A DNA stretch of 64,000 bases from Spirochaetia bacterium (GTDB lineage Bacteria; Spirochaetota; Spirochaetia; DSM-2461). Below, piece after piece: positions 18,018-36,102 of the stretch. A program made the position numbers and the translations under genes. The notes beneath the pieces are model-generated. The model saw nothing but the letters and a program-made list of their open reading frames with translations, did not search any database and was not told the origin of the DNA. How positions within the stretch are numbered: position 1 is the first letter of the stretch; each line of letters begins with the position of its first letter. The DNA lies in NCBI GenBank assembly GCA_963668315.1, contig OY764216.1:1088001-1152000 (forward strand), read 5' to 3'.

Positions 18018-18026
18018 GTCAGCCTC

Positions 18027-19448
18027 CTAGTTTGTTGCTATGGTCGTCATCAGCTTGGCCGATGTGTCGAATTCATCGGTAGACGGATTGTACCGGAAAT
18101 CGTATCCAAGGGTTATGACCGCCGGTCCGGTTCGGTAATTGACGGCGGCGCCGATGACGGCTCCCACCGGATGAAACGTATCCGGGAAGGAGGTAATGTA
18201 TTTCTTGTCGTAATAGGCATCCAGGGAGACATTGGGGATAATTCCCTCTCCCAGGGTGAACATCATGGCCACGTGGGGGAACTGGGCTTCGCTGTAGTTC
18301 AGCTTGTCCTCTTCGTCCGTGGTGGGTACTCCGTCGAAGGGGCCTTCAATCATGGCGTTGAAAACGATGGTATCCTGCAGCAGGGAGAATCCCGTGGAGG
18401 CCAGCCATCCCACCATGGCGGGAGAACCGCTGACGGCTCCGGAAAGAACGGCATATTTCTGGGCCCGGTAGAGGTCGTAGGATCGATCGAAATAGGTAGG
18501 AATGAAGTTTTCGCCCAGTATGCGAATCTGAGCGGTGTAGGGAATGACTTTGATCAGTCTTCCCCCGAATCCGATCATTTCTCCCGTGGCCGTGTCGCTG
18601 TTGTCCCCGGTCCCCGGCTGGGCGGCGAAGGCGGTAAAAGCGGCCAGATTGATAATCTCATTGGAAAGGAGGGGCTGAATCAGGTCGGCTCCCCATGTCA
18701 GGGCCGTATCGATGGGGGTCGTCAGCTTATCTCCGCTGACGGAGTAGATTGTATCGAGCTCGGTAAAATACTCCTCCCTGTAGGCCGGATCTCTGTCGGC
18801 GGCTATGGTAAAGCCCACTTCCAGGTTCTGGAGCAGCCGGTTCTCCGACAGAATGAGAGGTCTCAGGAAAAGGCGTGATCCCACCACATCCATGGCGGCC
18901 ATGTTTCCCACGAAGGTTTCGATTCCCAGCAGGGGAAAGTTGACCAGAGCCCCGTCAAAGTCAAGGGCCAGTCCCAGGAGGCGGCTATCGGGCAGAAACA
19001 TGGTATTGGCGTAGTTTCCCATAATGAAGCCCGTTCCCAGGGTCCCGTTGTTTATGGAGCCGAACTGGGCATAGAGGGGATCTCCCTTCCGGCCGTATCT
19101 CACATAGGCGAATTTGGAGAGGTAGAGCTCCAGCCAGGCGCTCAGGGTATCGTCCTCAGGCACCCAGTCCTCGTCTCTGAAGTAAAGAAACTCACCCCCG
19201 GAGCCTGAACGGACATGGAAAGAGAGGTCAAGGGCCACGCCCCATTTCCCTATGGAAAATTCCGGGAGAACTCCGATCTTCTGATAGGATATCTCCTCCC
19301 CGTCTGCGCCGTCGTTGAATGTCTGGACTCCCAGCCCGATTCCCATATTGAAAGCAAAGGCTGAGTCTTCCCCTTCCTGTGCCGAGAGAACCGGGGGAGC
19401 TAAAAAGAGGGCTGTTATGATGATTAACCAAGTGTGCCTTATTTTCAT
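18027..19448 (-). CDS. Secreted putative outer-membrane beta-barrel protein, paralogous to the C-terminal part of 15810-18017
   Basis: Signal peptide; YVRYGRKGDPLYAQFG..NGTLGTGFIMGNY matches YLKWGRQRDPFYFAFG..GVNLGHGILMNDY in the neighbour. Confidence 0.65.
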   Translation of the reverse strand: MKIRHTWLIIITALFLAPPVLSAQEGEDSAFAFNMGIGLGVQTFNDGADGEEISYQKIGVLPEFSIGKWGVALDLSFHVRSGSGGEFLYFRDEDWVPEDDTLSAWLELYLSKFAYVRYGRKGDPLYAQFGSINNGTLGTGFIMGNYANTMFLPDSRLLGLALDFDGALVNFPLLGIETFVGNMAAMDVVGSRLFLRPLILSENRLLQNLEVGFTIAADRDPAYREEYFTELDTIYSVSGDKLTTPIDTALTWGADLIQPLLSNEIINLAAFTAFAAQPGTGDNSDTATGEMIGFGGRLIKVIPYTAQIRILGENFIPTYFDRSYDLYRAQKYAVLSGAVSGSPAMVGWLASTGFSLLQDTIVFNAMIEGPFDGVPTTDEEDKLNYSEAQFPHVAMMFTLGEGIIPNVSLDAYYDKKYITSFPDTFHPVGAVIGAAVNYRTGPAVITLGYDFRYNPSTDEFDTSAKLMTTIATN

Positions 19449-21820: not shown

Positions 21821-24313
21821 ATGAAAGTTGTTATCATAGGAGGAGTGGCAGGCGGTGCTACTGCGGCTGCCCGGTTACGGCGGCAGGATGAGAAAGCGGA
21901 AATTATCATGTATGAGAAGGGCGAGTATATCAGCTATGCCAACTGCGGCCTTCCCTATTACATCGGAGATACCATTTCGGAGCGGGAGCGCCTTTTTGTT
22001 CAGACTCCGGAGAGCTTCAACGGTATCCTGAATGTTAATGTGAAAACCCGTCACGAAGTTTTAAAAATCAATCGGGAAGCAAAAAGCGTTACCCTTAAGA
22101 ATCTTGCTACAGGTGACACCTATGATGACAGCTATGATAAGCTGATCCTTTCTCCCGGGGCGGAACCCATCAAACCGCCCATTCCCGGAATCGACTCAAA
22201 ACGGGTCTACACCATGCGCAATGTTACCGATACGGATGCCATTAAAACAGCGGTGGAAGAGGGGAAACCCAAAAGAGCCGTTGTCATAGGCGCCGGTTTC
22301 ATCGGGCTGGAAATGGCGGAGAACCTTCATGAAAAGGGGATTTTCGTCACCGTCGTCGAGGCGGTTGACCAGGTCATGGGCATTCTCGATTATGAGATGG
22401 CCGCTGAGGTCCACTCCCAGCTGAAACAGAAGGGCGTTGAGCTCTACCTGAGCGACGGGGTCACCAAATTCGAGGATACGGACAACCTGGTCAGGCTGAC
22501 TCTGCAGAGCGGCAAGGTCCTGGATGCGGATATGGTCATCCTTTCCATCGGAGTCAAGCCGGACACGAAACTGGCTTCCGAAGCAGGATTGACCATAGGG
22601 AAATTCGGCGGCATCTGGGTCAACGACAAGATGCAGACCAGTGATCCCGATATTTTCTCCCTGGGTGATGCCATTGAATTCCCCAGTCCTCTGACCGGTG
22701 ACTCTCTTCGTACTCCCCTGGCCGGACCGGCCAACAAGCAGGGACGCATCGTGGCGGATAACGTCATCAAGGCCATGGCGGGGGAGGAACTTATTTCGTT
22801 CAAGGGTTCCCTCGGAACGGGTATCGCCAAGGTTTTTGACCTGACGGTGGCCTCTACGGGACTTTCGGAGAAGCAGCTGGCCCGCCTTGGAAAGACCGAT
22901 GTCAAGTCACTCATTATTCACGGCAGCTCCCATGCGGGATACTATCCCGATGCCCACCCGCTGACCGTAAAAATCGTATACGACAGGGAGGGAAAGCTTT
23001 ACGGGGCCCAGGCCGTGGGATACGACGGTGTGGATAAGCGAATTGATATGATTGCCGCGGTTATGGGGATGGGCGGCACGGTTTATGATCTTCAGGAAAT
23101 AGAGCATGCCTACGCGCCGCCCTTTTCCAGCGCCAAAGACCCGGTGAATATCGCCGGTTTTACCGCGGAGAATATTCTTAAGGGCCGGTCCACCCATATC
23201 ACCTGGAGAGAGCTGAGAGATCTTCCCGAGGAGGAGAGGTTCATCCTGGATGTGAGAACCCCCGATGAGTTCGGACTGGGAACCATATCGGGAGCCTACA
23301 ATATTCCCCAGCCGGAAGTTCGGAGCCGTCTGGGAGAGATCCCGCGGGACAGAAAGATTGTCCTGCTCTGCGGAGTGGGCAAGCGTGCCTACATGGTGGA
23401 ACGTATACTTAAGCAGGAAGGTTTTGACGCCTGTATTCTCTCCGGCGGGCTCAAGATCTATTCGGCGGCCACGGCCGTTCAGAGTAATGAAAACCTCTGG
23501 GAAAGCCAGCAGGTCATCAGGCCTCTGAAACAGGGAGAGGCGACCAACGAGAGTCTGCCCCTTTCCATTGACGTACAGACCATCGAAGTGGATGCATGCG
23601 GTCTTCAGTGCCCCGGCCCCATTCTCAAGCTGAAAACCGAAATTGAAAAGCTTCATCCCGGAGAAATGCTCAGGGAAGTGGCTACCGATCCGGGATTCGC
23701 CAAGGATGTGTACGCCTGGGCCAAGATGACCGGCAACCATGTCATTTCCGTTGAACAGAAAGGCCCGAAAGTTTCGGCCCTCGTGCAGAGAGGCAAACCC
23801 AAAGGGGCCGCCCCTGCCGCGGGCCAGGCTGCCAATCTGCCTCAGGACGGAACCAGCATGGTCGTCTTTTCCGATGATATGGACAAAGCCCTCGCCTCCT
23901 TTGTTATTGCCAACGGGGCTGCGGCTGCGGGAAAAAAAGTAACCCTTTTCTTTACCTTTTGGGGTTTATCGATTATAAAGAAAGTAGGACCTGTTCGTGT
24001 TAAGAAGGATTTCATGGGAAAGATGTTCGGTATGATGCTTCCCAATCACAGCAAAAAGCTGGGCCTTTCCAAGATGAACATGGGCGGCCTGGGGGCTGTC
24101 ATGATGAGGTCCCGTATGAAGGCCCAGGGAGTTGACTCCCTTGAGACGATGATTCAGACAGCGGTGGATGCCGGCGTCAAGCTGGTCGCCTGCCAGATGT
24201 CTATGGATGTTATGGGTGTTAAGAAGGAAGAGTTGTTGGATTGCGTGGAGATTGGCGGAGTCGCCAGTTTCCTCGAATCCACCGATGACGCACAGGCAAC
24301 TTTGTTCATTTAA
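21821..24313 (+). CDS. CoA-disulfide/persulfide reductase - rhodanese - TusA/SirA - DsrE/F-like fusion
   Basis: GGVAGG FAD motif, SYANCGLPY, GAGFIGLE, YAPPFS; rhodanese DVRTPDEF...CGVGKR; TusA CGLQCPGP; DsrE-like FFTFWG...ACQMSMDVMG. Confidence 0.9.
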   Translation: MKVVIIGGVAGGATAAARLRRQDEKAEIIMYEKGEYISYANCGLPYYIGDTISERERLFVQTPESFNGILNVNVKTRHEVLKINREAKSVTLKNLATGDTYDDSYDKLILSPGAEPIKPPIPGIDSKRVYTMRNVTDTDAIKTAVEEGKPKRAVVIGAGFIGLEMAENLHEKGIFVTVVEAVDQVMGILDYEMAAEVHSQLKQKGVELYLSDGVTKFEDTDNLVRLTLQSGKVLDADMVILSIGVKPDTKLASEAGLTIGKFGGIWVNDKMQTSDPDIFSLGDAIEFPSPLTGDSLRTPLAGPANKQGRIVADNVIKAMAGEELISFKGSLGTGIAKVFDLTVASTGLSEKQLARLGKTDVKSLIIHGSSHAGYYPDAHPLTVKIVYDREGKLYGAQAVGYDGVDKRIDMIAAVMGMGGTVYDLQEIEHAYAPPFSSAKDPVNIAGFTAENILKGRSTHITWRELRDLPEEERFILDVRTPDEFGLGTISGAYNIPQPEVRSRLGEIPRDRKIVLLCGVGKRAYMVERILKQEGFDACILSGGLKIYSAATAVQSNENLWESQQVIRPLKQGEATNESLPLSIDVQTIEVDACGLQCPGPILKLKTEIEKLHPGEMLREVATDPGFAKDVYAWAKMTGNHVISVEQKGPKVSALVQRGKPKGAAPAAGQAANLPQDGTSMVVFSDDMDKALASFVIANGAAAAGKKVTLFFTFWGLSIIKKVGPVRVKKDFMGKMFGMMLPNHSKKLGLSKMNMGGLGAVMMRSRMKAQGVDSLETMIQTAVDAGVKLVACQMSMDVMGVKKEELLDCVEIGGVASFLESTDDAQATLFI

Positions 24314-24333
24314 AAAGAACCCCATGTAAAAAG

Positions 24334-24371
24334 AAAAAACGCCCCGGACCAAGTTCACGGGGCGTTTTTTT
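24334..24371. terminator. Bidirectional Rho-independent terminator overlapping the CapA stop
   Basis: AAAAAACGCCCCG-11 nt-CGGGGCGTTTTTT. Confidence 0.8.
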
Positions 24372-25311
24372 GGGGCTCCTCCTCTACGGTTGTCCCATCC
24401 GGCTTCAAGCTGACAAAGCTTTCCCGGTACTTTACCCGCCGTCCCCTTACTCCGAATTCCGCTTCCAGAAGGAGTCCTCTGCGGGTCTCCGGGGAAAAGT
24501 ATTGATCGAAGATGAAATTCCCCAGGGAGTAATACACCGGGACTCCGCCGATAATCTCGCGGGGCTGTATGACATGGGGATGGCTCCCGACAACGAGATC
24601 CGCTCCGGCCTCGATGAATGTTTTTGCCAGGGTCCTCTGCCGTACCGAAGGTTCCGTCCTGTACTCCTCCCCCCAGTGGCAGTACATAATCTGGATATCG
24701 CTCCGGTGAACTTTCTCCTTAAGCGTCTCAAGGGCGGTCTCCTCTCCCCCTTGTGTGAATTGGTTGTAATTGATGAAGCACAGCCTTATACCGCCTTTTT
24801 CCAGAAGGAGATAATTTTTTCCTTCGTCCTTCCCGTTATCTCCGAACCAGCGCAGACCGTATTTTTCAAGGTACCGGTAAGTCTCCTCTCTCTCTTCCTT
24901 TCCGAAAGCACCCATATGGTTGTTTCCCGTGTTGAGAATGGCAATCCCGTTTCTCCTGAGCAGTTCCAGAGCCGCCGGTTCCATTCGGAGAAGAAAATTT
25001 TCCCGACTGCCGTAGGCCGTGCCGCGGCTCAGGGAGGGATTTGTGCTGACGGGAGCTTCCAGGTTGGCGATGATGAAGTCCGCATCGGCGAGGGAGGGGA
25101 GAGGGAGGGGCAGAATGAAACCGTAGGGATTCTCATCATCCGGGGAGTATTCGGCCCGTGTTCTGAAGTACCGGTCCATCATAATGTCACCGGCGAAGAC
25201 AATTTTTACTTTTCTGCCGGTTATCCCCCGGGGGATAAGCAGACCGGCGGCGAGAAAGGGTATAATAAAAAGGGCGTAAAAAAGGTATCTCTTGCGTAAT
25301 TCTACTTTCAT
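24355..25311 (-). CDS. CapA (PGA_cap) family metallophosphatase-fold protein with N-terminal membrane anchor
   Basis: FAGDIM, NLEAP, GNNH, HWGEEY, GSHPHV, YSLGNF. Confidence 0.9.
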   Translation of the reverse strand: MKVELRKRYLFYALFIIPFLAAGLLIPRGITGRKVKIVFAGDIMMDRYFRTRAEYSPDDENPYGFILPLPLPSLADADFIIANLEAPVSTNPSLSRGTAYGSRENFLLRMEPAALELLRRNGIAILNTGNNHMGAFGKEEREETYRYLEKYGLRWFGDNGKDEGKNYLLLEKGGIRLCFINYNQFTQGGEETALETLKEKVHRSDIQIMYCHWGEEYRTEPSVRQRTLAKTFIEAGADLVVGSHPHVIQPREIIGGVPVYYSLGNFIFDQYFSPETRRGLLLEAEFGVRGRRVKYRESFVSLKPDGTTVEEEPQKNAP

Positions 25312-25356
25312 GTTTATTATTCCCAGATTGTATCAGAATCATGGGGGGAGAGAGAA

Positions 25357-28083
25357 TTGGATAAGAGTCGATTTATCGTACTATGCTTTTTTGTTGTCCT
25401 GTTAGGGGCATGCGGAGTCCAGGAGAAGGAAACGTCCGCGGATGTAAGGGAGAATGCTGTCGTCGAGGGACCTGCTTTGCCTCCCCCGACTCCCGCGGCA
25501 GAGGAGCAGGAAGCCGCCCCCGCACCGGAAGAGGCTGAGACCGTTTCCTTTGATCTTGCCCTTGTCGGTGCCGACGGAGGCCGGGGAGATGCGGCCGAGG
25601 CCCACGCCGGTTATCTTGATGACGATATGACCTTTATGAATCTGGCCACCGAATGGGAAGGCGATACGGCGGTGGTGGGAAGCAAGGTCGCGCGGTTCTA
25701 TCCCGGTGTGCGGGTGGAAAAGGATGAGGATCTGCCGGCACTTCCCGAGGGAATTCCTCTCCCCTTTGCCGCTCTGATACCCATTAGGGAGAGACTGTCC
25801 AATCCTGAGGGGGATTATTACGGATTTTTCGAATTTGAGGATAACTACAACTATTTTTATTTGACCGAATGGGAAGGGCAGCAGGGAATCGTCTTCGGGG
25901 CGGATCTGGCGGGGCTGAATGCTTCGACAGAGAAAAATCTCCTGACCGCTTCCATGTATGCCGGCGGAAGCCGTTATGAGGAGTTTCCCCCCTATGCGGG
26001 TTATTATCCCCTGGCGGATAATGAGATTGATACTCTGGAGAAAAATCGTTTGGCCCTTCAGCGTGTCCGCAAGAAGGAGTATTACCTTAGCCTGGAAAGG
26101 CCTGACGATATGATTTCCCTTTATATGAATACGGCCCGGGACAAGTATACGCCCCTGTTCATCACCACCGACCTTGTCTCCCAGGGACTGCATCTTTTCT
26201 TCGATCAGTTTCTGCAGCAGACGGAGGAGAAAATCTTCATTCCCCGATTAGGCCGGCTGACCGGAGTCTTTCTTGACCGTCTGGAAGAATCGGATGTGAC
26301 GGAGGACGCCGATGATGCCTATGGTAAGGCCGTGAATACCCTCATAACCTATTTTCAGGTCGCCGACTGTCTCATCAAACTGGCTCCGGAAATCCATATT
26401 GCCAAAGAGGACTGGGGGGAGGAGAAGATCGAATATACTGAACCTGACCGGGACACGGTGCTGGCCCTTTATCCCGAAAAGGTACGGGAGGAGGTGGAGC
26501 TTATCTGCAACGCCGCCGGTTCGGCCCTTTCTCCTTCGTTTCAGTACGAGGAGGATTATTCCCAATACAAACCAAGAGGACATTATACCAAAAACGGCGT
26601 ACTCGAGGCTTACTTCAGGACAATGATGTGGTTCGGACGGATTCATTTCTATATGAGCGACGGACAGGAGGCCGTCATATCCGATGACAGCGAGGCCATG
26701 ACTCAGGGAAGTGCCGCCTCTCTCTCTCTGGACACTCTTCCCATGGTGGCGGTGGCAACGGATATCGCCGTGAAAAATCCCGACCTCTTTCAGGACTGGA
26801 AGCTGTTGTTCGATCCCATAACCGACCTGATCGGGATGAGCGATGATCTCTCCTTCTATGAGGCCATGCCCTTTTTCGAGGGGCTGCATATCGAGGACCT
26901 GAGAGCCTGGACCAACGATGTGGAACAGGTTTCTGTGGCGATTCTCAAGGCCCGGGAAGAACTCCGGTCTCCTCTTATCGCCGGTAATTCTGTCTGGGAG
27001 GCGCCGTCGGGGGAGGGGCGCACACCGCCGATGGGGTGGCGTCTTTTCGGCCAGCGTTTTACCTGGGATTCCTATGTCCACCAGCTTGTCTCGCCCCCCC
27101 GGCTGATGAGCCGGGATATCGTACGGGGGCTGGACATCATGAAGGCCTTCGGTTCCCGTACGGCGGACAATCTGCTACGGATTTCCGATTATCCGGAAAT
27201 GGCGGGACTGGAAGAGACTCTGGGAAAAATAGAGGAGGAATTTGAGGCGAAGGATGAAGCCTTCTGGAAGGAAAGCTACTACAACAGCACCCTGGCCATG
27301 ATCCGTGCCCAGGCCTGTTTCGAGCCGGGAGCGGGGTTCTACTTTACCGAGTCCCCCCTCTGGGGAATTAAATCCCAGATTTCGGCCCACGGCACATGGG
27401 CCGCTCTCCGTCATGATACCATTCTTTATGTCAAGCAGGTCTATGCCGAAAGAGCGGGAGACGGCGACTTCAACCCCACATTCCGTACCGAACCCTTGCC
27501 GCTTCCGGTTCACTATATTGAACCGAACCTTCCCTTTTTCGACGCGGCTCTGTCTGCGGTCAGGGAAATTCGGGAATCGGGGAGGAAATACGGGTTTATC
27601 GGTGAGGATTACGAAGAGAAGCTTGCTTCCTGGGATAAGCTGCTCGCGCGGATGACCGATATCGCCTATCTGGAATATAAGGACGAAGAGGTGGCTCCGA
27701 ATGATGTGGAATGGATAAGGACCATTCCCCAGCAGCTGGTTCCTCTGGTTCTCGCCCCCGAAATGAACTACGCATCCTACGTGGAGGACGAGGACATTCT
27801 CAAGAGCGCCATCGTGGCCGATGTTTTTACGAATGCGGAGCAGGGTGTCGCCCTGGAAGTGGGAACGGGAATTCCCTACCGCTTGCTGGTGGCTTTGAAC
27901 GACGGTCAGGGAAGGAAGAGGATCGCCGTGGGATTCACCTTCAGTTACTTTGAGTTTCTTGTGGGACAGTCGGAGCGTATGACCAATGAAGAGTGGAGGG
28001 AAATCGTCTATCCCGGAGATGAAAATATGGATGAGTACCTTCCGTTCTGGAGCAAGGGGCTCATGCTGGAAGCCCGTCCGTAA
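25357..28083 (+). CDS. DUF3160 family lipoprotein
   Basis: Lipobox LGAC; DYSQYKPRGHYT, YFRTMMW, GQRF, W..LRHDTILYVKQ, IVADV, FSYFEF..RMTNEEW. Confidence 0.8.
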   Translation: MDKSRFIVLCFFVVLLGACGVQEKETSADVRENAVVEGPALPPPTPAAEEQEAAPAPEEAETVSFDLALVGADGGRGDAAEAHAGYLDDDMTFMNLATEWEGDTAVVGSKVARFYPGVRVEKDEDLPALPEGIPLPFAALIPIRERLSNPEGDYYGFFEFEDNYNYFYLTEWEGQQGIVFGADLAGLNASTEKNLLTASMYAGGSRYEEFPPYAGYYPLADNEIDTLEKNRLALQRVRKKEYYLSLERPDDMISLYMNTARDKYTPLFITTDLVSQGLHLFFDQFLQQTEEKIFIPRLGRLTGVFLDRLEESDVTEDADDAYGKAVNTLITYFQVADCLIKLAPEIHIAKEDWGEEKIEYTEPDRDTVLALYPEKVREEVELICNAAGSALSPSFQYEEDYSQYKPRGHYTKNGVLEAYFRTMMWFGRIHFYMSDGQEAVISDDSEAMTQGSAASLSLDTLPMVAVATDIAVKNPDLFQDWKLLFDPITDLIGMSDDLSFYEAMPFFEGLHIEDLRAWTNDVEQVSVAILKAREELRSPLIAGNSVWEAPSGEGRTPPMGWRLFGQRFTWDSYVHQLVSPPRLMSRDIVRGLDIMKAFGSRTADNLLRISDYPEMAGLEETLGKIEEEFEAKDEAFWKESYYNSTLAMIRAQACFEPGAGFYFTESPLWGIKSQISAHGTWAALRHDTILYVKQVYAERAGDGDFNPTFRTEPLPLPVHYIEPNLPFFDAALSAVREIRESGRKYGFIGEDYEEKLASWDKLLARMTDIAYLEYKDEEVAPNDVEWIRTIPQQLVPLVLAPEMNYASYVEDEDILKSAIVADVFTNAEQGVALEVGTGIPYRLLVALNDGQGRKRIAVGFTFSYFEFLVGQSERMTNEEWREIVYPGDENMDEYLPFWSKGLMLEARP

Positions 28084-28974
28084 ATGATGAGAGTAAAAGA
28101 GCTGCTGCTCTGCTTCTCCCTTTTGCTCCTGGCCGGATGCCGGGAGGAAGGGATAGGGGCCGCGGAAGACCCCTACCTTACCTGGGACCTCAAGGGGGAT
28201 TCCTATCCCTCCTTGCCGGACGTGGAGATGGGACGTCTTCCCGAGGGGGAAGCTTTTCCTGTCGCAGGCATCGTTAGCCACCACCTTCTGGCGGGGGAGC
28301 TGATCGATGACTGGTTCCGTGAGCTGGCCCGCAGGCGGAAGGTCGAGCGTTTTTTCATCCTCTCTCCCCGGCACTGGGATCTCGGGACGGGAGACTACTC
28401 CCTGACCGCCGAAAGCTGGCTGACCGCACGGGGCAAAGTGAAAGCCGATGGGGACGTGGTCGATCGGCTCGCGGAGGAACTTGACTGTGAAGTGGACAGG
28501 GAGGTCTTTGTCATGGAGCACGGAATCGAGACTCTCATCCCCTTTATCAAGAAATATTTCCCCGATGCGAAGGTTGTTCCCCTCAACTACCGGGGGGAGG
28601 CCCCTGTCAATATGCCCGTGGTCAACCGGCTGTGGAAAAGCCTTTCCCCCTATTTTGAAGGGGCCGGGGCAGAGGAGAATTTTCTTCTTATCTCCAGTGA
28701 TTTCGCCCATCATGGGGATTTTGAAGGCACCCGCATAAAGGATGAGCGGACGGATCGGTTTATGGAGAATCCGGGCCGTACAAACTGGATTTTCGCCGGC
28801 TGTGATAACCGCCCCGGCATTTATCTCCTGGCTTCCCTGGCCGATCGGATGACATCCCCCGAAATGGGCATTCTCTACCACAGTAATTCCTACGAATTGT
28901 CCGGAAAGGATGCCCGGGACATCACCAGTTATTTTTTTACTTTTCTCTTTGAGAGACAGGAAGGCGCACTCTGA
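28084..28974 (+). CDS. Memo (MEMO1 / AmmeMemoRadiSam protein B) family lipoprotein
   Basis: Lipobox LAGC; GIVSHH, LSPRH, EHGIE, SSDFAHH and C-terminal Cys (GCDN). Starts directly after the DUF3160 stop. Confidence 0.82.
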   Translation: MMRVKELLLCFSLLLLAGCREEGIGAAEDPYLTWDLKGDSYPSLPDVEMGRLPEGEAFPVAGIVSHHLLAGELIDDWFRELARRRKVERFFILSPRHWDLGTGDYSLTAESWLTARGKVKADGDVVDRLAEELDCEVDREVFVMEHGIETLIPFIKKYFPDAKVVPLNYRGEAPVNMPVVNRLWKSLSPYFEGAGAEENFLLISSDFAHHGDFEGTRIKDERTDRFMENPGRTNWIFAGCDNRPGIYLLASLADRMTSPEMGILYHSNSYELSGKDARDITSYFFTFLFERQEGAL

Positions 28975-30421
28975 CGGAGGGAGCCCGGTAGAACCTGACT
29001 CCCGGCTGTTTCCATCCTTCTTCTCCCAGTCCGCTTTTCCTTGAGAGTGTACGGAGAAACTGACGGCGGGAGAGATTCCTTTCCTGGGCCAGAGAGGCCT
29101 GAAGGAGGGTCCGCTCTCCCTCGTATTCCAGTATAAGGCTGTCCAGAGAGGGTATGAAGTCTTCCGGGGAGTCAAGGGGAGTAAAATCTCCGAAGAGAGT
29201 TACTTCCACGTCCAGATCCTCCAGCTCATCGGCTCTGACAGGTTCATAGCGGGGATCATGGAACGCCGCCTCGGCTACGGCCGTGCCTATCATGGCCGAC
29301 GGGTTTTCAATACCCCGGTAGTAGGCAATACAGCCCCGGTCCTCATAACGTGAGATAAACCGCACGGCCAGCCCCCGTTCCGCTCCGGAAAGGGCAGGCC
29401 CGGAATCGGGTTCACCGCTTTTCATTCCGGATAAATCTTCCGTGAGAATTTGGGCGGCCTGCCGGGCCAGTTTCTCAAGCTGCTTTTCGGGAAACTCCCG
29501 GCGAAGTTCTTCATTCTCCCTCCGGGCCCGCAGCATATTCCCGGTGATCTCCGCCATCGTATCATCGGTGGGAATCAACGGAAGGGAGATAAGTTCCTGC
29601 CAGAAAAGGGCGGGGGCCATATCCCAGAGGGCTGCTCCGGGTGCGAAAAAAGCGGAGAAGTCCGTTTTTATTCCCCTTTCCTTCCACTCTGACCATCGGC
29701 GTAACTCCTCATTTCCCTCCGGCCGGGGGCTCATTTCACCTCCGGCCATTAGAATCCTGCGATTACTGCCGAGCCTTTTCAGCGAGTGGGCGAACCACTT
29801 CCAGGCCAGAGAGGCTTCCGGCTGATAGGCGGCCGAAAAGGCCACGGTCAGGACAGGGGGATTCAGTTTATCGATAAAATCCAGCATTTCATCAAGAAAA
29901 TCCTCGGGAGAGTCTCCCGGATCGACGGTCAGAATATCCAGATCCAGACTCAGAGCCACCGGGCCAGAGAATTGTCCCGCAGCGTAAAGATCATTCAGGT
30001 CGGACCAGTCTATGATGTGCACGGCCTCTCTTTTTCTCGCCCCTATGTGGGGGGGATCCTCTCCGGTTTTTCGGTTGAGCCAGGCCAGCCGGGCATTGCG
30101 GTTGGGGAGAAGGAGATCCCGCCCCGAGACCCAGTACACGTCTCCTATCATTCCCCCGTCGACCAGCCCTCCCAGCCAGTTAAAGCTCGTAACGTCCCAT
30201 TCCCCGGGGGGAAGATAAAGGGAAGAGGGGCCGGGGCCCATATCGTGGTGATAATCGAGGAGGATCAGGGTCGCCGGGGCCTCCTTTTCCAGATGGCTGA
30301 GCAGATAGGGGTAGGAGCCGGAATGCCTGTCGCTGACGAAAACTTCTCCCCCGGGTCGGCAGGAGAGAAGCAGTACAAGGGGAAGAAGGATTAGTATTTT
30401 TTGAGTCATGGATAATTTCAA
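28937..30421 (-). CDS. Lipoprotein with N-terminal arginase/UPF0489-like metallohydrolase domain and C-terminal AMMECR1 domain
   Basis: Lipobox LLSC; LDYHHD, NW, LDLD; RGCI...AAFHDPRYEPV..DEL.DL.VEV...FL..L..K.GL. Confidence 0.75.
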   Translation of the reverse strand: MKLSMTQKILILLPLVLLLSCRPGGEVFVSDRHSGSYPYLLSHLEKEAPATLILLDYHHDMGPGPSSLYLPPGEWDVTSFNWLGGLVDGGMIGDVYWVSGRDLLLPNRNARLAWLNRKTGEDPPHIGARKREAVHIIDWSDLNDLYAAGQFSGPVALSLDLDILTVDPGDSPEDFLDEMLDFIDKLNPPVLTVAFSAAYQPEASLAWKWFAHSLKRLGSNRRILMAGGEMSPRPEGNEELRRWSEWKERGIKTDFSAFFAPGAALWDMAPALFWQELISLPLIPTDDTMAEITGNMLRARRENEELRREFPEKQLEKLARQAAQILTEDLSGMKSGEPDSGPALSGAERGLAVRFISRYEDRGCIAYYRGIENPSAMIGTAVAEAAFHDPRYEPVRADELEDLDVEVTLFGDFTPLDSPEDFIPSLDSLILEYEGERTLLQASLAQERNLSRRQFLRTLSRKSGLGEEGWKQPGVRFYRAPSVRVRLPVSQREK

Positions 30422-30436
30422 CGGGTTGTAAGATTC

Positions 30437-33400
30437 CTAAACAGAGATCCGCAGTCCTTTGTTCTGCCTGTGCTTCTCCATCGCCCGGTTTAAGAGATAG
30501 TAGACCGCGGGCACGACGAAAAGAGTCATGAACGTGCTGGAAAGAAGGCCTCCCACCATGGTCTGCCCTATGGGCTGTATCTGTTCGGCCCCTTCCCCGG
30601 GGAAAAAGGCCATGGGAACCATTCCCAGAATGGTGGTAAGACTGGTCATGAGAATGGGCCGCATGCGATGGGCTCCCGCGTCCAGGCAGGCCTTTCTGAG
30701 AGGTGTGCCCCGTCTTCTGAGGATGTTGGTATAGTCCACCAGTACGATGGCATTGTTGACGACAATCCCCACCAGGGCCACAATTCCCACCGCCGCATAG
30801 GTGCTGAAAGGCTGTGCGGTTATGGCATACATAGCCGATACGCCGATGAGCAGCAGGGGTATGGAAAAAAGGATGATGAAAGGATCCAGAAGCGACTCGA
30901 ACTGACCAGCCATGACGCCGAAAACGAGAAATACGGCAACGGCTACGATGAGAAGAATGGACGAGTTGAATTCCTGCATCTGACGATATTCTCCCCCCAT
31001 CTCTATGGTGACCCCCTCGGGAAGGATGAGCCGTTCATCCAGAATGGAACGGACCAGGGGAGAGAGGTCCGATACGGCTGCGTTCGCCGAGGCATCCGCC
31101 GTGACATGAATGATGCGGGTTCTGTTTTCCCGGGAGATGGAGCTGGGCGAACGGCTTTCGACCAGTTCCGCCACGTTGGACAGGGGAATCCGGCCGCTTC
31201 CTCCGGTGATATAGAAGGAACTCAGATCCGTCAGATTGGAGCGATCCTCTTCCTTCAGGGAGAGGCTGATATTCATCTCCTCGCCTTTCATGCGGAAAGT
31301 CGTGGCCGTTAGTCCGTTGAGAAGGGCTCCGATCTCGTTGCCCAGTGTTGTGATAGAGATGCCGAGAGCGGCGGCCCTGTCCCTGTCTACGGAGATCTGA
31401 AGTTCGGGGCCGCCCGCCTCGAGGCTGGAGACGGGATCCAGCACGTCGGGGACGGTTCTGAGGATTTCCACGATCTCGTCGGCGACCTGCTCGGTCAAAT
31501 CCACATCTTCGGAGAGGACGGATATGTCCACGGCGGAACGGTTCCCGAAACGCCTGCCTGCAGAGAAAGTGAAATTCGCCGAGGGGAACTCCTTCAGATA
31601 ACCCCTGAGAATCGTCATAATCTCTTCGGTGGACTGGGTCTGGAATTCGGGATCGGGAAGGCTTATCTCAATGCTTCCCGAGCTGCCGCCCACCCGGATG
31701 ATGATGTTTTCGTACTCCTTCACCTCCTGCTCAATAATATCCGCCATGGCGAAAAGGTTATCCCTGGTTATATCGGTATTGGTTCCTTCGGGCATGGACA
31801 GACTGATGGTGACCTTGTCGTCGGTGGTCGATCTCATGCTCATATTCATTCCCAGGCCGGTAAAGCTCCGCAGGGCAATGGCGAACAGGACCGATACCAG
31901 AACCAGAACCAGGAATTTGTTATTCAGCACCAGATCCAGGATATTGCGGTATCCGTCTTCAAGGCCGGTGAGGAGCTTCTCGGCCCCGTCGTCTATTCTC
32001 TTCAGAAACCGGATCTTCAAGGGTTTCTGCACCCGGGTGTTCAGCTTGAGAAAACCGCCGCAGAGGGAGGGAACCAGAGTGACCGCCACGAAGAGGGAGC
32101 AGATGAGGGAGATGATGACCGTGATAACCAGCTCCTCAAACATCTCTCCCAGCATTTCCAGGTCGCTTTTGAAAATCAGGACCGGAATGAAAACACAGAG
32201 GGTGGTCAAGGTGGAGGCGGTGATGGCGGAGAGCATCTCATGGCTTCCCAGTACGGCGGCCACCTTCGGCTTGGCTCCCCGTTCCCGGTAGCGGTGGATA
32301 TTCTCCAGAATGACGATGGAGCAGTCCACGATCATTCCCACACCCAGTATGAGTCCGGACATGGTCATCATATTCAGGGTCAGGTCCATGAAATACATGC
32401 ATGCCAGGGTGATCAGTATGGAAATGGGCAGGGAAAAGGCGATGACCAGCGTGCTTTTCAGGCTCCTGAGAAAGAGGAAAATAATGATAACCGCCAGTAT
32501 GACACCCTGGTATGCCGCCTGGTAGACCTGGTTCATGCTGGATGCCGTGATAGAGGTCTCGTCGGCGGTGATGACCAGACTGATTCCTTCGGGGAGGGAC
32601 TCGTTTATGGCCTGGAGCGCTTCGTTGACACCCCGGGCGACATGAATGCTGTTGGCGTCCGATTCGTCGGAGACACGGAGCATGACGCTGGGAGTTCCGT
32701 TGACATAGACAAGGTAGCTGCTCTCCTCATACCCGAGGGAGACTTCGGCTATGTCTTCGAGGCGTACGACTTTGGAACGGTTGACCGATTCCGAGGCGGA
32801 AGGGGCCGATATGGTTTTTACCACGGCGTTGCGGATCTCTTCCAGACGGGAGAATTCTTCATCCGTCCGGACAAGATAATCAAGGCTCCCCGCCGTCAGG
32901 CTGCCCGAAGACATCTGGATATTCTGATTTCTCAGGGCCGAGGCGACCTGACTCATGGTCAGTCCGTAGGCTTCGAGCCGGTTGGCCGAAAGGGCCACTT
33001 TGACAATCCGGTCCTGGCCGCCGGACACCTCCGCTTCGGCCACGCCGGGGACTCGCTCGAGCATGGGTTTGGCTATCTTCTCGGCCAGCTGCTTGAGTTC
33101 CTCGATGGGGGCGTTTCCCGTAATCATCAGCTGCATGATGGGCCAGGACGTCATATCGAATTTCCTCAGCCGGGCGTCCTCCGCATCGTCGGGAAGGCGG
33201 TTCCCCAGGGTGTCGAGAACCTGCTGGACCTGATCGGCCGCTTCATCCATATCCTTGTCGAATCCGTAATTCAGCCTTATCCGGCTTCTGCCTTCATAGC
33301 TGACCGATGAGATCTCCTCCAGATCTTCCAGACTGGCCAGAGCATCCTCCAGGGGAATGGTTATGTTTTTCTCCACTTCCTCCGGTCCGGCTCCGCTGTA

Positions 33401-33550
33401 GTTGCAGGTGACCATAAGCGTGGGGAACTCGGTGGAAGGAAACATATCCACGGCCAGTTTGGGGACAAAGATGACCGCAATGGCGCAGATGAGAATATAG
33501 ACCATGAGAATCGCAACGGGGCGTCTGACGGAAAGTTCGGCTATGTTCAT
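30437..33550 (-). CDS. RND efflux permease (AcrB/AcrD/AcrF family)
   Basis: SVRRPV N-terminus, GMIVDCSIVILENI, GIVVNNAIVLVD, RMRPILMT; 1037 aa. Confidence 0.93.
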   Translation of the reverse strand: MNIAELSVRRPVAILMVYILICAIAVIFVPKLAVDMFPSTEFPTLMVTCNYSGAGPEEVEKNITIPLEDALASLEDLEEISSVSYEGRSRIRLNYGFDKDMDEAADQVQQVLDTLGNRLPDDAEDARLRKFDMTSWPIMQLMITGNAPIEELKQLAEKIAKPMLERVPGVAEAEVSGGQDRIVKVALSANRLEAYGLTMSQVASALRNQNIQMSSGSLTAGSLDYLVRTDEEFSRLEEIRNAVVKTISAPSASESVNRSKVVRLEDIAEVSLGYEESSYLVYVNGTPSVMLRVSDESDANSIHVARGVNEALQAINESLPEGISLVITADETSITASSMNQVYQAAYQGVILAVIIIFLFLRSLKSTLVIAFSLPISILITLACMYFMDLTLNMMTMSGLILGVGMIVDCSIVILENIHRYRERGAKPKVAAVLGSHEMLSAITASTLTTLCVFIPVLIFKSDLEMLGEMFEELVITVIISLICSLFVAVTLVPSLCGGFLKLNTRVQKPLKIRFLKRIDDGAEKLLTGLEDGYRNILDLVLNNKFLVLVLVSVLFAIALRSFTGLGMNMSMRSTTDDKVTISLSMPEGTNTDITRDNLFAMADIIEQEVKEYENIIIRVGGSSGSIEISLPDPEFQTQSTEEIMTILRGYLKEFPSANFTFSAGRRFGNRSAVDISVLSEDVDLTEQVADEIVEILRTVPDVLDPVSSLEAGGPELQISVDRDRAAALGISITTLGNEIGALLNGLTATTFRMKGEEMNISLSLKEEDRSNLTDLSSFYITGGSGRIPLSNVAELVESRSPSSISRENRTRIIHVTADASANAAVSDLSPLVRSILDERLILPEGVTIEMGGEYRQMQEFNSSILLIVAVAVFLVFGVMAGQFESLLDPFIILFSIPLLLIGVSAMYAITAQPFSTYAAVGIVALVGIVVNNAIVLVDYTNILRRRGTPLRKACLDAGAHRMRPILMTSLTTILGMVPMAFFPGEGAEQIQPIGQTMVGGLLSSTFMTLFVVPAVYYLLNRAMEKHRQNKGLRISV

Positions 33551-34521
33551 TTTGTATCCCGGGTAATGGCGTGAACGGGAGTGCCCTCATCCAGAAGGGT
33601 CTGCCCGGCGGTGATAACCGATTCTCCGGGGGATACTCCCTCCTTGAGTTCAACCAGCTCGGAAGAACGGAGTCCTACCGTTACTTCGCGCCGTTCCGCC
33701 TTTCCCTCGGAGTTGATAACGAATACGGTATCATTTCCATAGTAGGAGAACAGGGCTTCCTCGGGAACGGCCACCACATTCCTTACCTGTTCGGTCACCA
33801 GTTTTATCGAGGCGAACATCCCCGGTTTGACGTTCTCCCTTTCATTAAGCTTAATGGTTATTTCCAGAGTTCTGGATGCCGGGTCGATAACCGTGCCCAC
33901 GTCGGAAATCTCCCCGCCGTACAGACGGTCTCCGAAGGCGGCAAAGGTGATTTCGGCGGGAAGACCCTTTTTTATGTAGGCGGCGAATTTCTCGGGGATA
34001 TAGGTGACCAGCTTAAGTCTGGTCAGATCGCCTATGGTCAGAATGGACGTTCCGGTTGTCACCTTGTCGCCCCGGTGGGCGTTATATCGCAGAACGGTGC
34101 CTCCGATCGTGGCGTATACGGTACTGCGGGAGTAATTCTGCCCGGGAAGGGACGGGTCGACCGACGCGATCGGCTGTCCCGCCGCGACTTTATCTCCCAC
34201 CGAGACGGAAATATCGGTGAGTTTTCCCGAAATATCCGGGTAGATTTCAATCTCTCCTTCGGTGAGGATATCCCCGTTGACTTTGATATAATTGGAGACC
34301 GTCTCCAGGGAGGTGACATAGGCTTCCACGGCCTGGCTCGGCGTCTTCTGTTCTCTTCCAGAACCGCCCTGCGCCGGAGCTCCGCCTGAGGAAGGCGCGG
34401 TACTGCGGTTTTCTGCGGGAGCCGCTTTGTTCGGCAGGGCGGGAATGACAAGGAATGCCAGGCTTATCACGATGGCTGCTGACACGACTATTTTGAAAAG
34501 GAAGTCCCTACTGTTATTCAT
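33547..34521 (-). CDS. RND efflux periplasmic adaptor (membrane fusion protein)
   Basis: N-terminal anchor, lipoyl-like VSVGDKVAAGQPI, IDPASRT, KPGMF, VAVPEEA. Confidence 0.9.
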   Translation of the reverse strand: MNNSRDFLFKIVVSAAIVISLAFLVIPALPNKAAPAENRSTAPSSGGAPAQGGSGREQKTPSQAVEAYVTSLETVSNYIKVNGDILTEGEIEIYPDISGKLTDISVSVGDKVAAGQPIASVDPSLPGQNYSRSTVYATIGGTVLRYNAHRGDKVTTGTSILTIGDLTRLKLVTYIPEKFAAYIKKGLPAEITFAAFGDRLYGGEISDVGTVIDPASRTLEITIKLNERENVKPGMFASIKLVTEQVRNVVAVPEEALFSYYGNDTVFVINSEGKAERREVTVGLRSSELVELKEGVSPGESVITAGQTLLDEGTPVHAITRDTK

Positions 34522-34628
34522 GCTGTTTCCCCCATGGTCTCTCGAAGCCCCTGGTGTTTGCTGATCGGGAATTTCCAGTAAAAAATCCCACCGGCGTTGT
34601 CAAGCGGACATGAGTGAACCTTACGTGA

Positions 34629-34670
34629 ATTATATCCTAACTCAATCTTGTGAGAAAAGTGTAAAGAAAA
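34629..34670 (-). promoter_or_regulatory. Candidate activator-dependent promoter of the RND operon with an OmpR/PhoB-type direct repeat
   Basis: Minus strand TATAAT at 34634-34629; TTCTTTACA and TTTCTCACA repeats 11 bp apart replace the -35. Confidence 0.5.
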
Positions 34671-34833
34671 AAAATTATATTCCCTTTTGTCGGACGTCCA
34701 TCGTTTTTAGCCACAATCCCGCTTCAATCACGGCAAATGGGGCAAGAACGGGGTTAACTGCGGGTAATGAAACCTTTTCTGTAGATCCGATTCATTCGAC
34801 TCCTTATCATGGGGGCCGATGTAAGGAGGAGTC

Positions 34834-36102
34834 ATGATGAACGGAAGAAAAATGACCGCGATTATACTCATTTTCGCGGGAACCTTTGTTGCCTGGATGA
34901 TTTTGGGAACGGCGACGACGGCCCGGACGGATACTCAGTATAGTTCTCTGAAGAGCGAAGTGGCAAGCCTTTACGGCGGTGATCTCCTCTTCCGGTCCCC
35001 CCGGTTCTACAGGAAGAGGGAAGAGACCGTGAAAGTCTGGGAGAACGGCGCCGAGGTGGAAAGGGCCATGTTTGTGCCTGTGGAGAGGGAAGCCCTGGAA
35101 TCGAATGTGTCTATCGATGTGTCTCTGGACAGGAGGAAGCGGGGCAATCTCTGGTTTCCCACATTCAAGGCGCGCTTTGAAGGGGAATATCTTTTTAAAG
35201 CCGATGATCCGAAGGAGCAGTGGTATCTCTATTCCGCCCTGGAGTCTTCCGACTCTATCTATCGCGATATCTCCCTGGAGGTAAACGGCATAGCCCGGGA
35301 AGATCTGCTTCCCCTGATTCGGAAGGAGGAGTTCTCTGTCCGGCCCGATGACGATGGTTTTGTCAGACTGACCCTCTCCTATGAATCCACCGGCATGGAG
35401 AATCTTTACTACTATATCTCGGAAGGGGACCAGATCGCCCAGTTGAATAACTTCAACCTGAAAATCCGCACCGACTTTGAAGATTTCGATTTTCCCCCTT
35501 CCCTGATGTCCCCTTCGCAAAAAACGAAAGTCGACGGGGGATATGAGATGGTCTGGACCCTCGACAAGGCCATGACCGGAAAGGATTTGGGGCTTATTAT
35601 CCCCAATAGGCAGAATCCGGGAGAGATCGTGACCAGGGTTACCTTCTTCGCGCCGGTGCCGCTACTTTTCTTCTTTACCATTCTGCTGATCGTCACGACA
35701 ATTATGGGTTGTCCTTTTCATCCCATGCATTACTTCTTCCTGGCCGCCACGTTCTTCTCATTCCATCTCATGTACTCCTATTTTTCAGATCATATGAATC
35801 TCTATTTGACTTTCGCGGTGGCTTCCGCGGTCTCGTTGGCGCTTACCGTAACATATCTGCGGCTGTTTGCTCCTCCCCGGCTGGCCTATATCATTGCTCC
35901 GGGCGTGCAGCTTATCTATCTGATCTTCTTCTCATGGTCGTTTTTCTTTGAGGGGATTACCGGGATGATCCTTACCGTCTGTTCCGTCCTTACCCTTTTC
36001 GTGCTTATGCAGCTGACGGGTAGGACAGACTGGGAGAGCCTGTTCGCCAAGCTGCCTCCCGACGGAAAACCTTCCGTCCGGGAGGGTGAGGAATCAGACT
36101 AG
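34834..36102 (+). CDS. CreD-like inner membrane protein
   Basis: N-terminal TM, periplasmic domain (RKRGNL, F..SLMSP), about 6 C-terminal TMs with HPMHY (CreD-type HPxQY). Confidence 0.65.
   Translation: MMNGRKMTAIILIFAGTFVAWMILGTATTARTDTQYSSLKSEVASLYGGDLLFRSPRFYRKREETVKVWENGAEVERAMFVPVEREALESNVSIDVSLDRRKRGNLWFPTFKARFEGEYLFKADDPKEQWYLYSALESSDSIYRDISLEVNGIAREDLLPLIRKEEFSVRPDDDGFVRLTLSYESTGMENLYYYISEGDQIAQLNNFNLKIRTDFEDFDFPPSLMSPSQKTKVDGGYEMVWTLDKAMTGKDLGLIIPNRQNPGEIVTRVTFFAPVPLLFFFTILLIVTTIMGCPFHPMHYFFLAATFFSFHLMYSYFSDHMNLYLTFAVASAVSLALTVTYLRLFAPPRLAYIIAPGVQLIYLIFFSWSFFFEGITGMILTVCSVLTLFVLMQLTGRTDWESLFAKLPPDGKPSVREGEESD

Follow-up and report, generated by a model that had tools for sequence, protein, structure and literature searches.

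Gene organization of the locus

The window, a 64,000-nucleotide stretch of a Spirochaetia bacterium genome (contig OY764216.1, positions 1,088,001 to 1,152,000), contains four adjacent genes with the following parts, numbered from the first nucleotide of the window.

24355–25311, minus strand: CapA gene (318 aa)
25357–28083, plus strand: DUF3160 gene (908 aa)
25657–25926, plus strand: predicted SH3b-type domain in DUF3160 (residues about 101–190)
28084–28974, plus strand: Memo gene (296 aa)
28937–30421, minus strand: AMMECR1-containing gene (494 aa)
28985–29458, minus strand: AMMECR1 domain (residues 322–479)
29552–30352, minus strand: arginase-fold domain, OspR/UPF0489 type (residues about 24–290)

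Pfam assigned the products to PGA_cap (PF09587, E 7.8e-52), DUF3160 (PF11369, E 2.1e-165), Memo (PF01875, E 1.2e-15) and AMMECR1 (PF01871, E 6.1e-21), the last match being confined to the C-terminal domain listed above. The AMMECR1 protein of the first-pass annotation consists of two domains, its N-terminal half being a separate arginase-fold domain overlooked there. The reading-frame coordinates agree with the divergent arrangement of CapA and DUF3160 across a 45-bp gap, and we re-found the DUF3160 stop directly abutting the Memo ATG with zero gap, as well as the 38-bp overlap between the convergent Memo and AMMECR1 genes. The four genes do not form one operon, as they are transcribed in both directions and the fusion gene follows a same-strand RND efflux gene, with 15 bp between the RND stop and the fusion start. 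Both flanking candidates were rejected as members, as RND genes occurred in 0 of 28 loci and a CoA-disulfide-reductase-like neighbour in one of them. A promoter scan of the locus stayed at chance level (4 vs 3.1), Rfam gave no match within positions 22000–36000 of the window, and the PADLOC anti-phage models (library of 2023) gave 0 matches for the four proteins.

Export signals of the module proteins

All four products had been described as exported. Indeed, lipoboxes are present in DUF3160 (LGAC19), Memo (LAGC19) and the AMMECR1 fusion (LLSC21), and CapA has an N-terminal hydrophobic stretch (residues 9–27, mean KD 2.1). We examined relatives with our own regular-expression pattern for a hydrophobic signal and lipobox Cys, rather than SignalP. 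The pattern was positive in 30 of 36 DUF3160 relatives, 30 of 37 AMMECR1-fusion relatives and 95 of 120 exported-type Memo relatives, most of the misses being truncated N-termini or uncleaved anchors, and in 0 of 23 cytoplasmic-type Memos. The lipobox Cys of Memo is invariant in all 40 aligned relatives. By this pattern test the export signals are conserved family-wide, and the predicted location of the module products is outside the cytoplasm, held by a lipid or a membrane anchor.

Conservation and modularity of the gene linkage

Among 350 genomes of the phylum, 21 were positive for the module, and DUF3160 lies directly upstream of the exported Memo in every one of them. The same order was found in 71 of 73 metagenome loci whose upstream sequence spans 600 bp or more, in a scan biased to close relatives because it used a narrower Memo alignment, the broad one having yielded no usable pattern. 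When loci were chosen by the AMMECR1 fusion alone, DUF3160, Memo and the fusion stood together in 17 of 22, and the four genomes with an unlinked fusion carry the DUF3160–Memo pair elsewhere. The exported AMMECR1 accompanies this pair in about half of the cases and CapA in few (adjacent in 2/21 sampled genomes and 6/80 metagenome loci); 10 of the 27 module genomes yielded no exported AMMECR1 but a single canonical-type match each. The four-gene linkage proposed earlier thus recurs, but not as a fixed unit: DUF3160 and Memo form the core, and AMMECR1 and CapA are optional.

These linkage counts refute a chance cluster or a set of mis-annotated cytoplasmic AmrA/AmrB copies, to which we assign a negligible probability even though the genes run in two directions and their flanking genes vary between genomes. 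Mis-annotation is further contradicted by the lipobox counts for exported and cytoplasmic Memos, and by the tree, in which the exported Memos are not nested among the cytoplasmic ones but separate from them (split 100/99).

The optional parts occur in several combinations. AMMECR1 is found alone as a lipoprotein at loci L085–L089, and fused to Memo at L045, where a separate arginase-like gene with the motifs EENH, DAHSD and IDLDF lies next to it. Memo::CapA fusions occur at P0158–P0160 and on Rhizobium pRL31b3, and CapA directly follows DUF3160 in 4/4 plasmid-collection records, from Bacteroides and Deinococcus. A phylum search with a Memo::CapA fusion as query (E<=1e-40) gave 0/351 and is uninformative.

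Memo and its metal site

Memo exceeds the TIGR04336 cut-off (74.4 bits vs 26) and matched human MEMO1/LigB-type structures by profile (E 1.7e-10); a direct PDB sequence search gave no match. The metal-site residues were said to be kept, and this holds for the His/Glu/Asp set (H66, H67, H97, E145, H146, D206, H209 and D241, invariant in 40 aligned rows). The Cys then counted among the ligands is doubtful, since C240 is restricted to the close clade and the neighbouring D241 is kept throughout the exported clade. The third ligand is probably Asp241 instead of the usual Cys, the alignments being compatible with C240 or D241. Many module hosts are gut or digester spirochaetes, in which oxygen chemistry is unlikely. 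The same genome encodes a third Memo at C1:333783.

For human MEMO1, Fe and Cu binding via H49, H81 and C244 is described in PMC11081632, with no dioxygenase activity detected. Both properties would suit an exported Memo acting as a metal-binding or redox partner (iron/copper handling) of DUF3160, with the other genes as loose additions, as would the anti-sigma-type domains (zf-HC2, FecR) to which DUF3160 is fused in 3 of the 35 relatives scanned. Such a role is improbable in our estimation, because it leaves unexplained both the intact catalytic motifs of AMMECR1, the arginase-like domain and CapA and the repeated fusion of those domains to Memo.

Relationship to the radical SAM enzyme AmrS

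A genome-wide search placed no AmrS-type radical SAM gene within the window (C1:1088001–1152000), as had been noted. The broader statement that the module has no radical-SAM partner holds insofar as none lies beside any copy; however, a complete AmrA-AmrS-AmrB operon, with its own Memo and AMMECR1, is present at C1:3893711–3896210. No AmrS was found beside the module in the sampled genome loci or the fusion-selected loci, and two weak radical-SAM matches in 80 metagenome loci are presumably activating enzymes beside a glycyl-radical-type gene. AmrS is kept in 21/21 module genomes vs 181/350 overall, and in 12/12 vs 17/45 within one family (f26), a co-occurrence drawn from few independent lineages, as 8 of the 21 belong to one genus and several families bear AmrS almost throughout.

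This co-occurrence would fit a module that, outside the cell, salvages or degrades modified nucleosides, nucleotides or a cofactor, perhaps what the cytoplasmic AmmeMemoRadiSam system produces. The phosphoesterase fold of CapA points the same way, as does the AMMECR1 fold, which is otherwise tied to nucleic acids with a predicted role in base modification (PMC2034487). We nevertheless regard this function as unlikely, given the few lineages behind the co-occurrence, the absence of a recurring nucleoside transporter nearby, and Deinococcus radiodurans, which encodes DUF3160-CapA as WP_162177619.1 and WP_027479716.1 and for which the control matches included neither Memo nor AMMECR1 nor AmrS.

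CapA

The metallophosphatase motifs of CapA are intact, as first described, with D42, N83, E85, N130-N131-H132, H212 and H246 invariant in 11 aligned CapAs. Its best PDB match was to MslH structures, although it falls far below the cut-off of the MslH profile NF038314 (37.8 vs 700), and its best BLAST scores were obtained with the CapA portions of Memo::CapA fusions (35–38%). PMC8179263 describes MslH as the epimerase of a C-terminal residue, an activity that the authors suggest for CapA too. The domain name would suggest a poly-gamma-glutamate capsule locus. However, the profiles TIGR04012 and PF14102 gave 0 matches for PgsB/CapB and CapC in the 97%-complete single-contig genome, with positive controls in Bacillus subtilis, so that this is not a polyglutamate capsule locus; with CapA so rarely adjacent, the capsule explanation is largely refuted and scarcely credible.

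The AMMECR1 fusion and its arginase-like domain

We found 37 full-length relatives of the fusion protein, whose structure model has a pLDDT of 90.9. Its AMMECR1 domain matches 1zq7 in fold (VIA Z 14.7) and lies below the AmrA cut-off of TIGR04335 (70 bits vs 99). The window protein carries R362-G-C364 and D389-P-R-Y392, and RGC and D[PS]RY are each kept in 37/37 relatives.

In the predicted model, the arginase-like domain matched the peptide arginase OspR (8brp) with a VIA Z of 14.3 (rmsd 4.0, 194 aligned), the next-best ureohydrolase reaching Z 10.3; the Foldseek match had an E of 8e-4. Pfam Arginase was found in 12 of 36 fusion members, and PF12640 (UPF0489) in one of 36, weakly (E 0.44). 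As a side observation, the Atlas feature neighbours of this domain at 0.87–0.89 are UPF0489 clusters, which we treat as a lead only. Peptide arginases have the metal motifs EEH, DXHXD and LDIDLDYF (PMC10028609), and the corresponding motifs of the window domain are D31-R-H33, D56-Y-H58-H-D60 and D160-L-D162. All six metal-ligand positions (H33, D56, H58, D60, D160 and D162) are thereby present by motif match to OspR, not by residue-level superposition, and H33 is kept in 32 of the 33 rows reaching that position. OspR converts peptidyl Arg to Orn, and its Glu11, the acidic residue before the first His, stabilises the guanidine (same source); by motif reading, the equivalent is Arg32 in the window protein and in most rows.

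DUF3160 and its predicted SH3b-like domain

The DUF3160 model (pLDDT 93.4) shows a large, mostly helical fold. Foldseek gave no PDB match at E<=0.001, nor did a direct PDB sequence search; the core reached a VIA Z of at best 6.9, to designed helical bundles, with no Atlas match, and a new fold is not thereby shown. About 40 polar residues are conserved in 85% or more of 119 relatives, including D272, H279, E290, R407-H409-Y410, H686-D687 and E722.

At the N-terminus, SH3-like barrel matches were obtained with Z of 5.9–6.4 and rmsd of 2.1–2.3, all below the VIA caution level of 8. They include 3pvq (Z 6.4, rmsd 2.1, 71 aligned), 9ovi (Z 6.0), LytB (7pj3, Z 5.9) and endolysin binding domains. 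Six of 49 relatives gave a Pfam SH3_3 match (best E 0.001), the window protein itself not being among them. SH3b domains need not bind peptidoglycan. Relatives also bear T9SS, Ig and dockerin tails, and DUF3160 occurs without Memo or CapA at 9/9 other spirochaete loci examined, as well as in a giant virus. Complex prediction for DUF3160 (model residues 125–823) with Memo (30–291) gave a score of 0.00 and no verdict for or against an interaction. DUF3160 is the hub of the module, in the position held by the radical SAM enzyme in the cytoplasmic system.

Proposed function of the module

The suggested redeployment of Memo and AMMECR1 to the envelope is upheld by the family-wide export signals, the recurring linkage and the tree separation, but not as a fixed four-gene set. 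As for the substrate, for which an envelope polymer or nucleotides had been put forward, polyglutamate is dropped for want of capB/capC, and the previously overlooked peptide-arginase-like and SH3b-like domains favour peptides over nucleotides. We tentatively propose that a conserved modular set around DUF3160-Memo performs periplasmic peptide editing, most likely on peptidoglycan stem peptides or muropeptides, and that its products are likely to cooperate as metal- and cysteine-dependent peptide-editing enzymes. In favour of this reading, the characterised relatives OspR and MslH both have peptides as substrates, some loci also encode the peptidases and transglutaminase-like proteins described below, and DUF3160 relatives bear the T9SS, Ig and dockerin tails noted above.

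In this scheme, DUF3160 would be tethered to the cell wall by its SH3b-like domain and would bind or cleave the peptide there through its conserved His/Asp/Glu/Arg/Tyr set. Memo would be a metallo-hydrolase, not an oxygenase, its metal being bound by two His and probably by Asp241. The arginase-like domain would hydrolyse a peptide side-chain C-N bond via a two-metal centre, as in OspR, on a substrate that is probably not arginine itself, Cys364 of AMMECR1 may be the carrier of an acyl or some other group, and CapA could, like MslH, act as an epimerase on a C-terminal residue.

Several findings weigh against this proposal. The similarity to SH3b is modest (Z about 6, below the caution level, and few Pfam hits), DUF3160 lacks Memo and CapA at other spirochaete loci and occurs in the giant virus, exported AMMECR1 was not found in some of the module genomes, the Glu11 position is apparently Arg, and the AMMECR1 fold otherwise points to nucleic acids. 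No recurring peptidoglycan-synthesis gene was seen among the neighbours read, and the patchy distribution (21/350 genomes, with DUF3160 in 0/3 same-genus genomes) indicates that basic wall building can do without the module.

Such patchiness would suit an accessory role in modifying or neutralising other peptides, namely the cell's own surface proteins, secreted peptides or foreign antimicrobial peptides in the periplasm, as RiPP-maturase chemistry outside the cell. Both characterised relatives, OspR and MslH, are RiPP maturases, and some loci encode exported C39-like peptidases (L045 and L085–L087, mostly below the Pfam cut-off) and transglutaminase-like proteins (L086 and L087). We hold this to be doubtful, as no recurring precursor-like or target gene was found among the neighbours (ORFs of at least 100 aa) and the SH3b-like domain is left unexplained.

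The peptidoglycan proposal can also be put more boldly, in a form that we consider speculative and rather doubtful: DUF3160 would be a wall-tethered enzyme of new fold that takes the place of the radical SAM enzyme and organises an as yet undescribed periplasmic tailoring pathway, made up of Memo, AMMECR1, a peptide arginase and a CapA epimerase, which chemically alters peptidoglycan peptides across several phyla. If true, Memo and AMMECR1 chemistry would be radical-free and act on peptides, opening human MEMO1, AMMECR1 and C5orf22 to enzymatic study for the first time. To our knowledge, these three are conserved human proteins without a known reaction, and we know of no explanation for CapA homologues outside capsule loci. 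The module unites relatives of all four in one soluble, oxygen-insensitive-looking, radical-SAM-free set, so the chemistry should be assayable without an iron-sulfur enzyme, and the substrate must be one that reaches the envelope. The module also gives DUF3160 its first recurring partners; this exported family is widespread and has a confident model but no clear solved relative. Deinococcus radiodurans offers a tractable test host. In the searched literature we found no description of the module, although the PCAD-Memo survey of Burroughs et al. (2019) may mention exported Memo or Memo::CapA. In the literature searched, DUF3160 appeared as a table entry, and nothing connected PGA_cap with peptidoglycan.

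Comparison with known systems

The module shares its Memo and AMMECR1 motifs with the AmmeMemoRadiSam system (TIGR04335 AmrA, TIGR04336 AmrB and TIGR04337 AmrS; context in PMC2034487 and PMC7159879), as neighbours or, at L045, fused. In contrast to that system, it has no adjacent AmrS, carries lipoprotein signals, and has DUF3160 as its fixed partner; its Memo has SHHLL instead of PHAGY and a probable Asp third ligand, the window AMMECR1 lies under the AmrA cut-off, and the canonical operon coexists in the genome. With human MEMO1 and the LigB-type extradiol dioxygenases (PDB 3bcz, 7kq8), the exported Memo has its His ligands in common and, as in LigB, possibly a carboxylate as the third ligand, but unlike MEMO1 it carries an export signal. 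CapA/PgsA and MslH (PF09587; PDB 8gq9) share the metallophosphoesterase-fold motifs and membrane anchor of the window CapA, whereas its genome has neither capB/capC matches nor a lasso cluster. Finally, OspR (PF12640, with human C5orf22) is the closest fold to the arginase-like domain, well above ordinary arginases, and has all three metal motifs in common with it; the window protein differs as an exported lipoprotein fused to AMMECR1, with no RiPP cluster seen, an Arg in place of Glu11, and 16% identity.

Gene layout and export signals

The four genes lie where the first-pass annotation had placed them and encode the Pfam domains it named, and the junctions it reported (a 45-bp gap, no gap and a 38-bp overlap, in map order) proved exact:

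24355-25311, minus strand, CapA
25357-28083, plus strand, DUF3160 protein
28084-28974, plus strand, Memo
28937-30421, minus strand, 494-aa AMMECR1-containing lipoprotein (hereafter, the fusion)

A custom pattern test on the sequences also bore out the claim that all four products carry export signals, giving a hydrophobic leader and lipobox in three and an N-terminal anchor in CapA. Among relatives, 95 of 120 Memos, 30 of 37 fusions and 30 of 36 DUF3160 proteins were positive in the same test, as were 0 of 23 cytoplasmic-type Memos. The lipobox Cys was invariant in 40/40 aligned Memo relatives. Judged from the sequences, export signals are thus a trait of the families, beyond the window proteins. 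All close relatives with a named taxon were spirochaetes, two records carrying none, and the host is therefore most probably a spirochaete as well.

Other features of the window are:

15810-19448, minus strand, two adjoining proteins of 735 and 473 aa that look exported, resemble each other in their C-terminal halves and match no Pfam family over the cut-off
21821-24313, plus strand, protein resembling CoA-disulfide reductase, with fused rhodanese, TusA and DsrE domains
24343-24371, GC-rich hairpin flanked by A and T tracts, where the reductase and capA genes converge
30437-34521, minus strand, AcrB-type RND pump and membrane-fusion protein

The hairpin looks like a bidirectional terminator, although it was absent from the output of a promoter scan. 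The fusion gene starts 15 bp past the pump stop, and the two may be co-transcribed in the window. Both the pump and the reductase-like gene were rejected as module members, since neither the pairing of the former with the fusion gene nor the neighbourhood of the latter is conserved.

Conservation and reshuffling of the module

We compared linkage in genome, phylum and metagenome samples, which partly overlap, so that the counts are not additive. Of the proposed four-gene linkage, the DUF3160-Memo pair recurs: DUF3160 lay directly upstream of Memo in 21/21 phylum loci (broken into two frames in one) and in 71 of the 73 metagenome loci with at least 600 bp there. These 73 belong to the best 80 out of 119 metagenome loci, many of which are short or nearly duplicated. 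The whole unit, however, is not fixed, as AMMECR1 was adjacent in 9/21 and CapA in 2/21 phylum loci; 41 of those best 80 metagenome loci had AMMECR1, 29 the arginase-like domain and 6 CapA. Searching with the fusion protein gave 22 genome loci, 17 with DUF3160, Memo and fusion together, either convergent as in the window or with the fusion divergent from DUF3160. One, on a short contig, had DUF3160 only, and four had neither, the pair sitting elsewhere in all four genomes; CapA adjoined in 5/22 and occurred somewhere in 25/27 module genomes. A fixed system is disfavoured because AMMECR1 was only of the canonical type in 10/27 module genomes, 8 further genomes had DUF3160 but no Memo, and DUF3160 was not found in the three same-genus genomes. 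One genome had a second DUF3160 copy, and no Memo or CapA was near DUF3160 in these nine further loci. At L185:5786-10610 (genome G148), DUF3160 stands in tandem copies, the first broken into two frames. We consider it very probable that an exported, co-functioning module exists, and a gene cluster by chance scarcely credible.

CapA was counted in the set because of Memo::CapA fusions, DUF3160-CapA pairs and its own best scores. Three membrane-anchored Memo::CapA fusions carry the same Memo type as the module; a fourth, on a Rhizobium plasmid, has no adjoining DUF3160. DUF3160 occurs in four records of the plasmid collection, one from Bacteroides finegoldii and three from Deinococcus. In each of them the CapA gene overlaps the stop of DUF3160, occupying the slot that Memo takes in spirochaetes, and the window CapA scored highest against the CapA halves of the Memo::CapA fusions among only 10 compared. 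At locus L045, AMMECR1 is fused to Memo, a free-standing arginase-like gene lies between Memo and DUF3160, and a C39-like peptidase is present. The fusions, the pairs and this rearrangement together argue that the same parts recombine independently.

In the Bacteroides record and two of the Deinococcus ones, DUF3160-CapA is flanked by a small protein (L179:5889-6338, L180:8665-9174, L182:8684-9226) bearing the motif D(V/I)TG(D/N)G.PE. It resembles an FG-GAP/VCBS calcium blade and might also belong to the module. Additional neighbours at some loci were C39-like, accompanying the module in three families (L085:3265-4122, L086:2385-4333, L087:11307-13246), and transglutaminase-like, a lipoprotein in two of these loci.

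Relation to cytoplasmic Memo

The first-pass annotation had noted no radical-SAM gene, which holds for the window, but the same genome carries a full AmrA-AmrS-AmrB operon (C1:3893711-3896210). It also holds a third Memo (G000:C1:333783-334631, L002), of a type common in its relatives (L018-L038, L040) that often adjoins canonical AMMECR1 and has SSN(L/M)S instead of SSDFxH; its metal site is possibly changed or degenerate. In a midpoint-rooted tree of 36 rows, with cytoplasmic rows only from the host genome's relatives and 8 of 23 cytoplasmic-type sequences left out, 18 exported and three CapA-fused Memos split from 15 cytoplasmic ones (support 100/99), and the 18 grouped together (99/94). 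Exported Memos thus stand apart, and because of this separation the window Memo is no recent copy of the genome's others. AmrS was present in 21/21 genomes with exported Memo, compared with 181/350 in the whole phylum sample, a co-occurrence inflated by kinship and taken as a lead only; salvage of nucleosides or a cofactor, tied to the cytoplasmic system, seems rather improbable.

In the alignment, Memo H67 and H97 are the counterparts of the His ligands in cytoplasmic Memos. Both C240 and D241 were present in 118/119 close relatives, and D241, without C240, persists in distant exported and CapA-fused forms. Human MEMO1 has ligands H49, H81 and C244, and dioxygenases use Glu at that place (excerpt of PMC11081632). 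We infer that D241 could be the third ligand, with alignments differing on register. Metal handling as the module's role is very unlikely.

Predicted peptide chemistry

The AMMECR1 domain had been recognised correctly, but the N-terminal half of the protein, an OspR-like arginase fold, had been overlooked. A Pfam search of the window protein gave no family for residues ~24-290. The model (pLDDT 90.9) superposed this domain on the peptide arginase OspR with Z 14.3 (rmsd 4.0, 194 residues), ordinary ureohydrolases giving Z 10.3 or lower, and Foldseek matched it at E 8e-4. Its conserved motifs, D31-R-H33, D56-Y-H58-H-D60 and D160-L-D162, are the counterparts of OspR's three manganese motifs, and OspR Glu11 is proposed to hold guanidine (excerpt of PMC10028609). 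The window protein has Arg at the Glu11 position and may therefore act on a substrate other than arginine. In the AMMECR1 half, RGC and DxRY, the predicted active site (PMC2034487, in part), were present in 37/37 relatives.

DUF3160 (pLDDT 93.4) gave no clear solved match for its core in structure searches. Residues ~101-190 resembled the SH3b domains found in wall hydrolases, at Z 5.9-6.4 and rmsd 2.1-2.3, and Pfam SH3_3 was found in 6/49 relatives. Fusions to anti-sigma-type zf-HC2 and/or FecR (P0241, P0299, P0305) suggest a role as an extracellular sensor. The giant virus Fadolivirus FV1/VV64 also encodes a DUF3160 protein (BFVD A0A7D3QV25).

Two parts have characterised relatives, OspR and MslH. 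MslH epimerises peptides at the C-terminus, and the authors of that work proposed the same role for CapA (excerpt of PMC8179263). On this basis we lean slightly towards a peptide substrate. Peptidoglycan peptides in particular, edited in the periplasm, would be the most economical choice because of the SH3b-like domain on the hub protein DUF3160 and the periplasmic location, and are put forward only tentatively; editing or disarming of other peptides seems unlikely. A polyglutamate capsule locus was rejected as highly improbable, as no capB or capC was found in the host genome. Ornithine, which a peptide arginase produces, occurs in the walls of spirochaetes and Deinococcus. This carries little weight, as Bacteroides does not fit and no arginase-like gene was seen in the Deinococcus loci.

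Comparison with known systems

No description of the module appeared in the literature searched; Burroughs et al. 2019, outside that search, may cover exported Memos. An excerpt of PMC4158269 names DUF3160 in a single row of a table, where it is classed as a secreted enzyme. We thus regard the module as real, conserved and apparently undescribed, with a putative mechanism. It shares Memo and AMMECR1 with the AmmeMemoRadiSam system, whereas the window set lacks AmrS and scores below the AmrA cut-off, and what sets this exported form apart is its DUF3160 and peptide-arginase partners.
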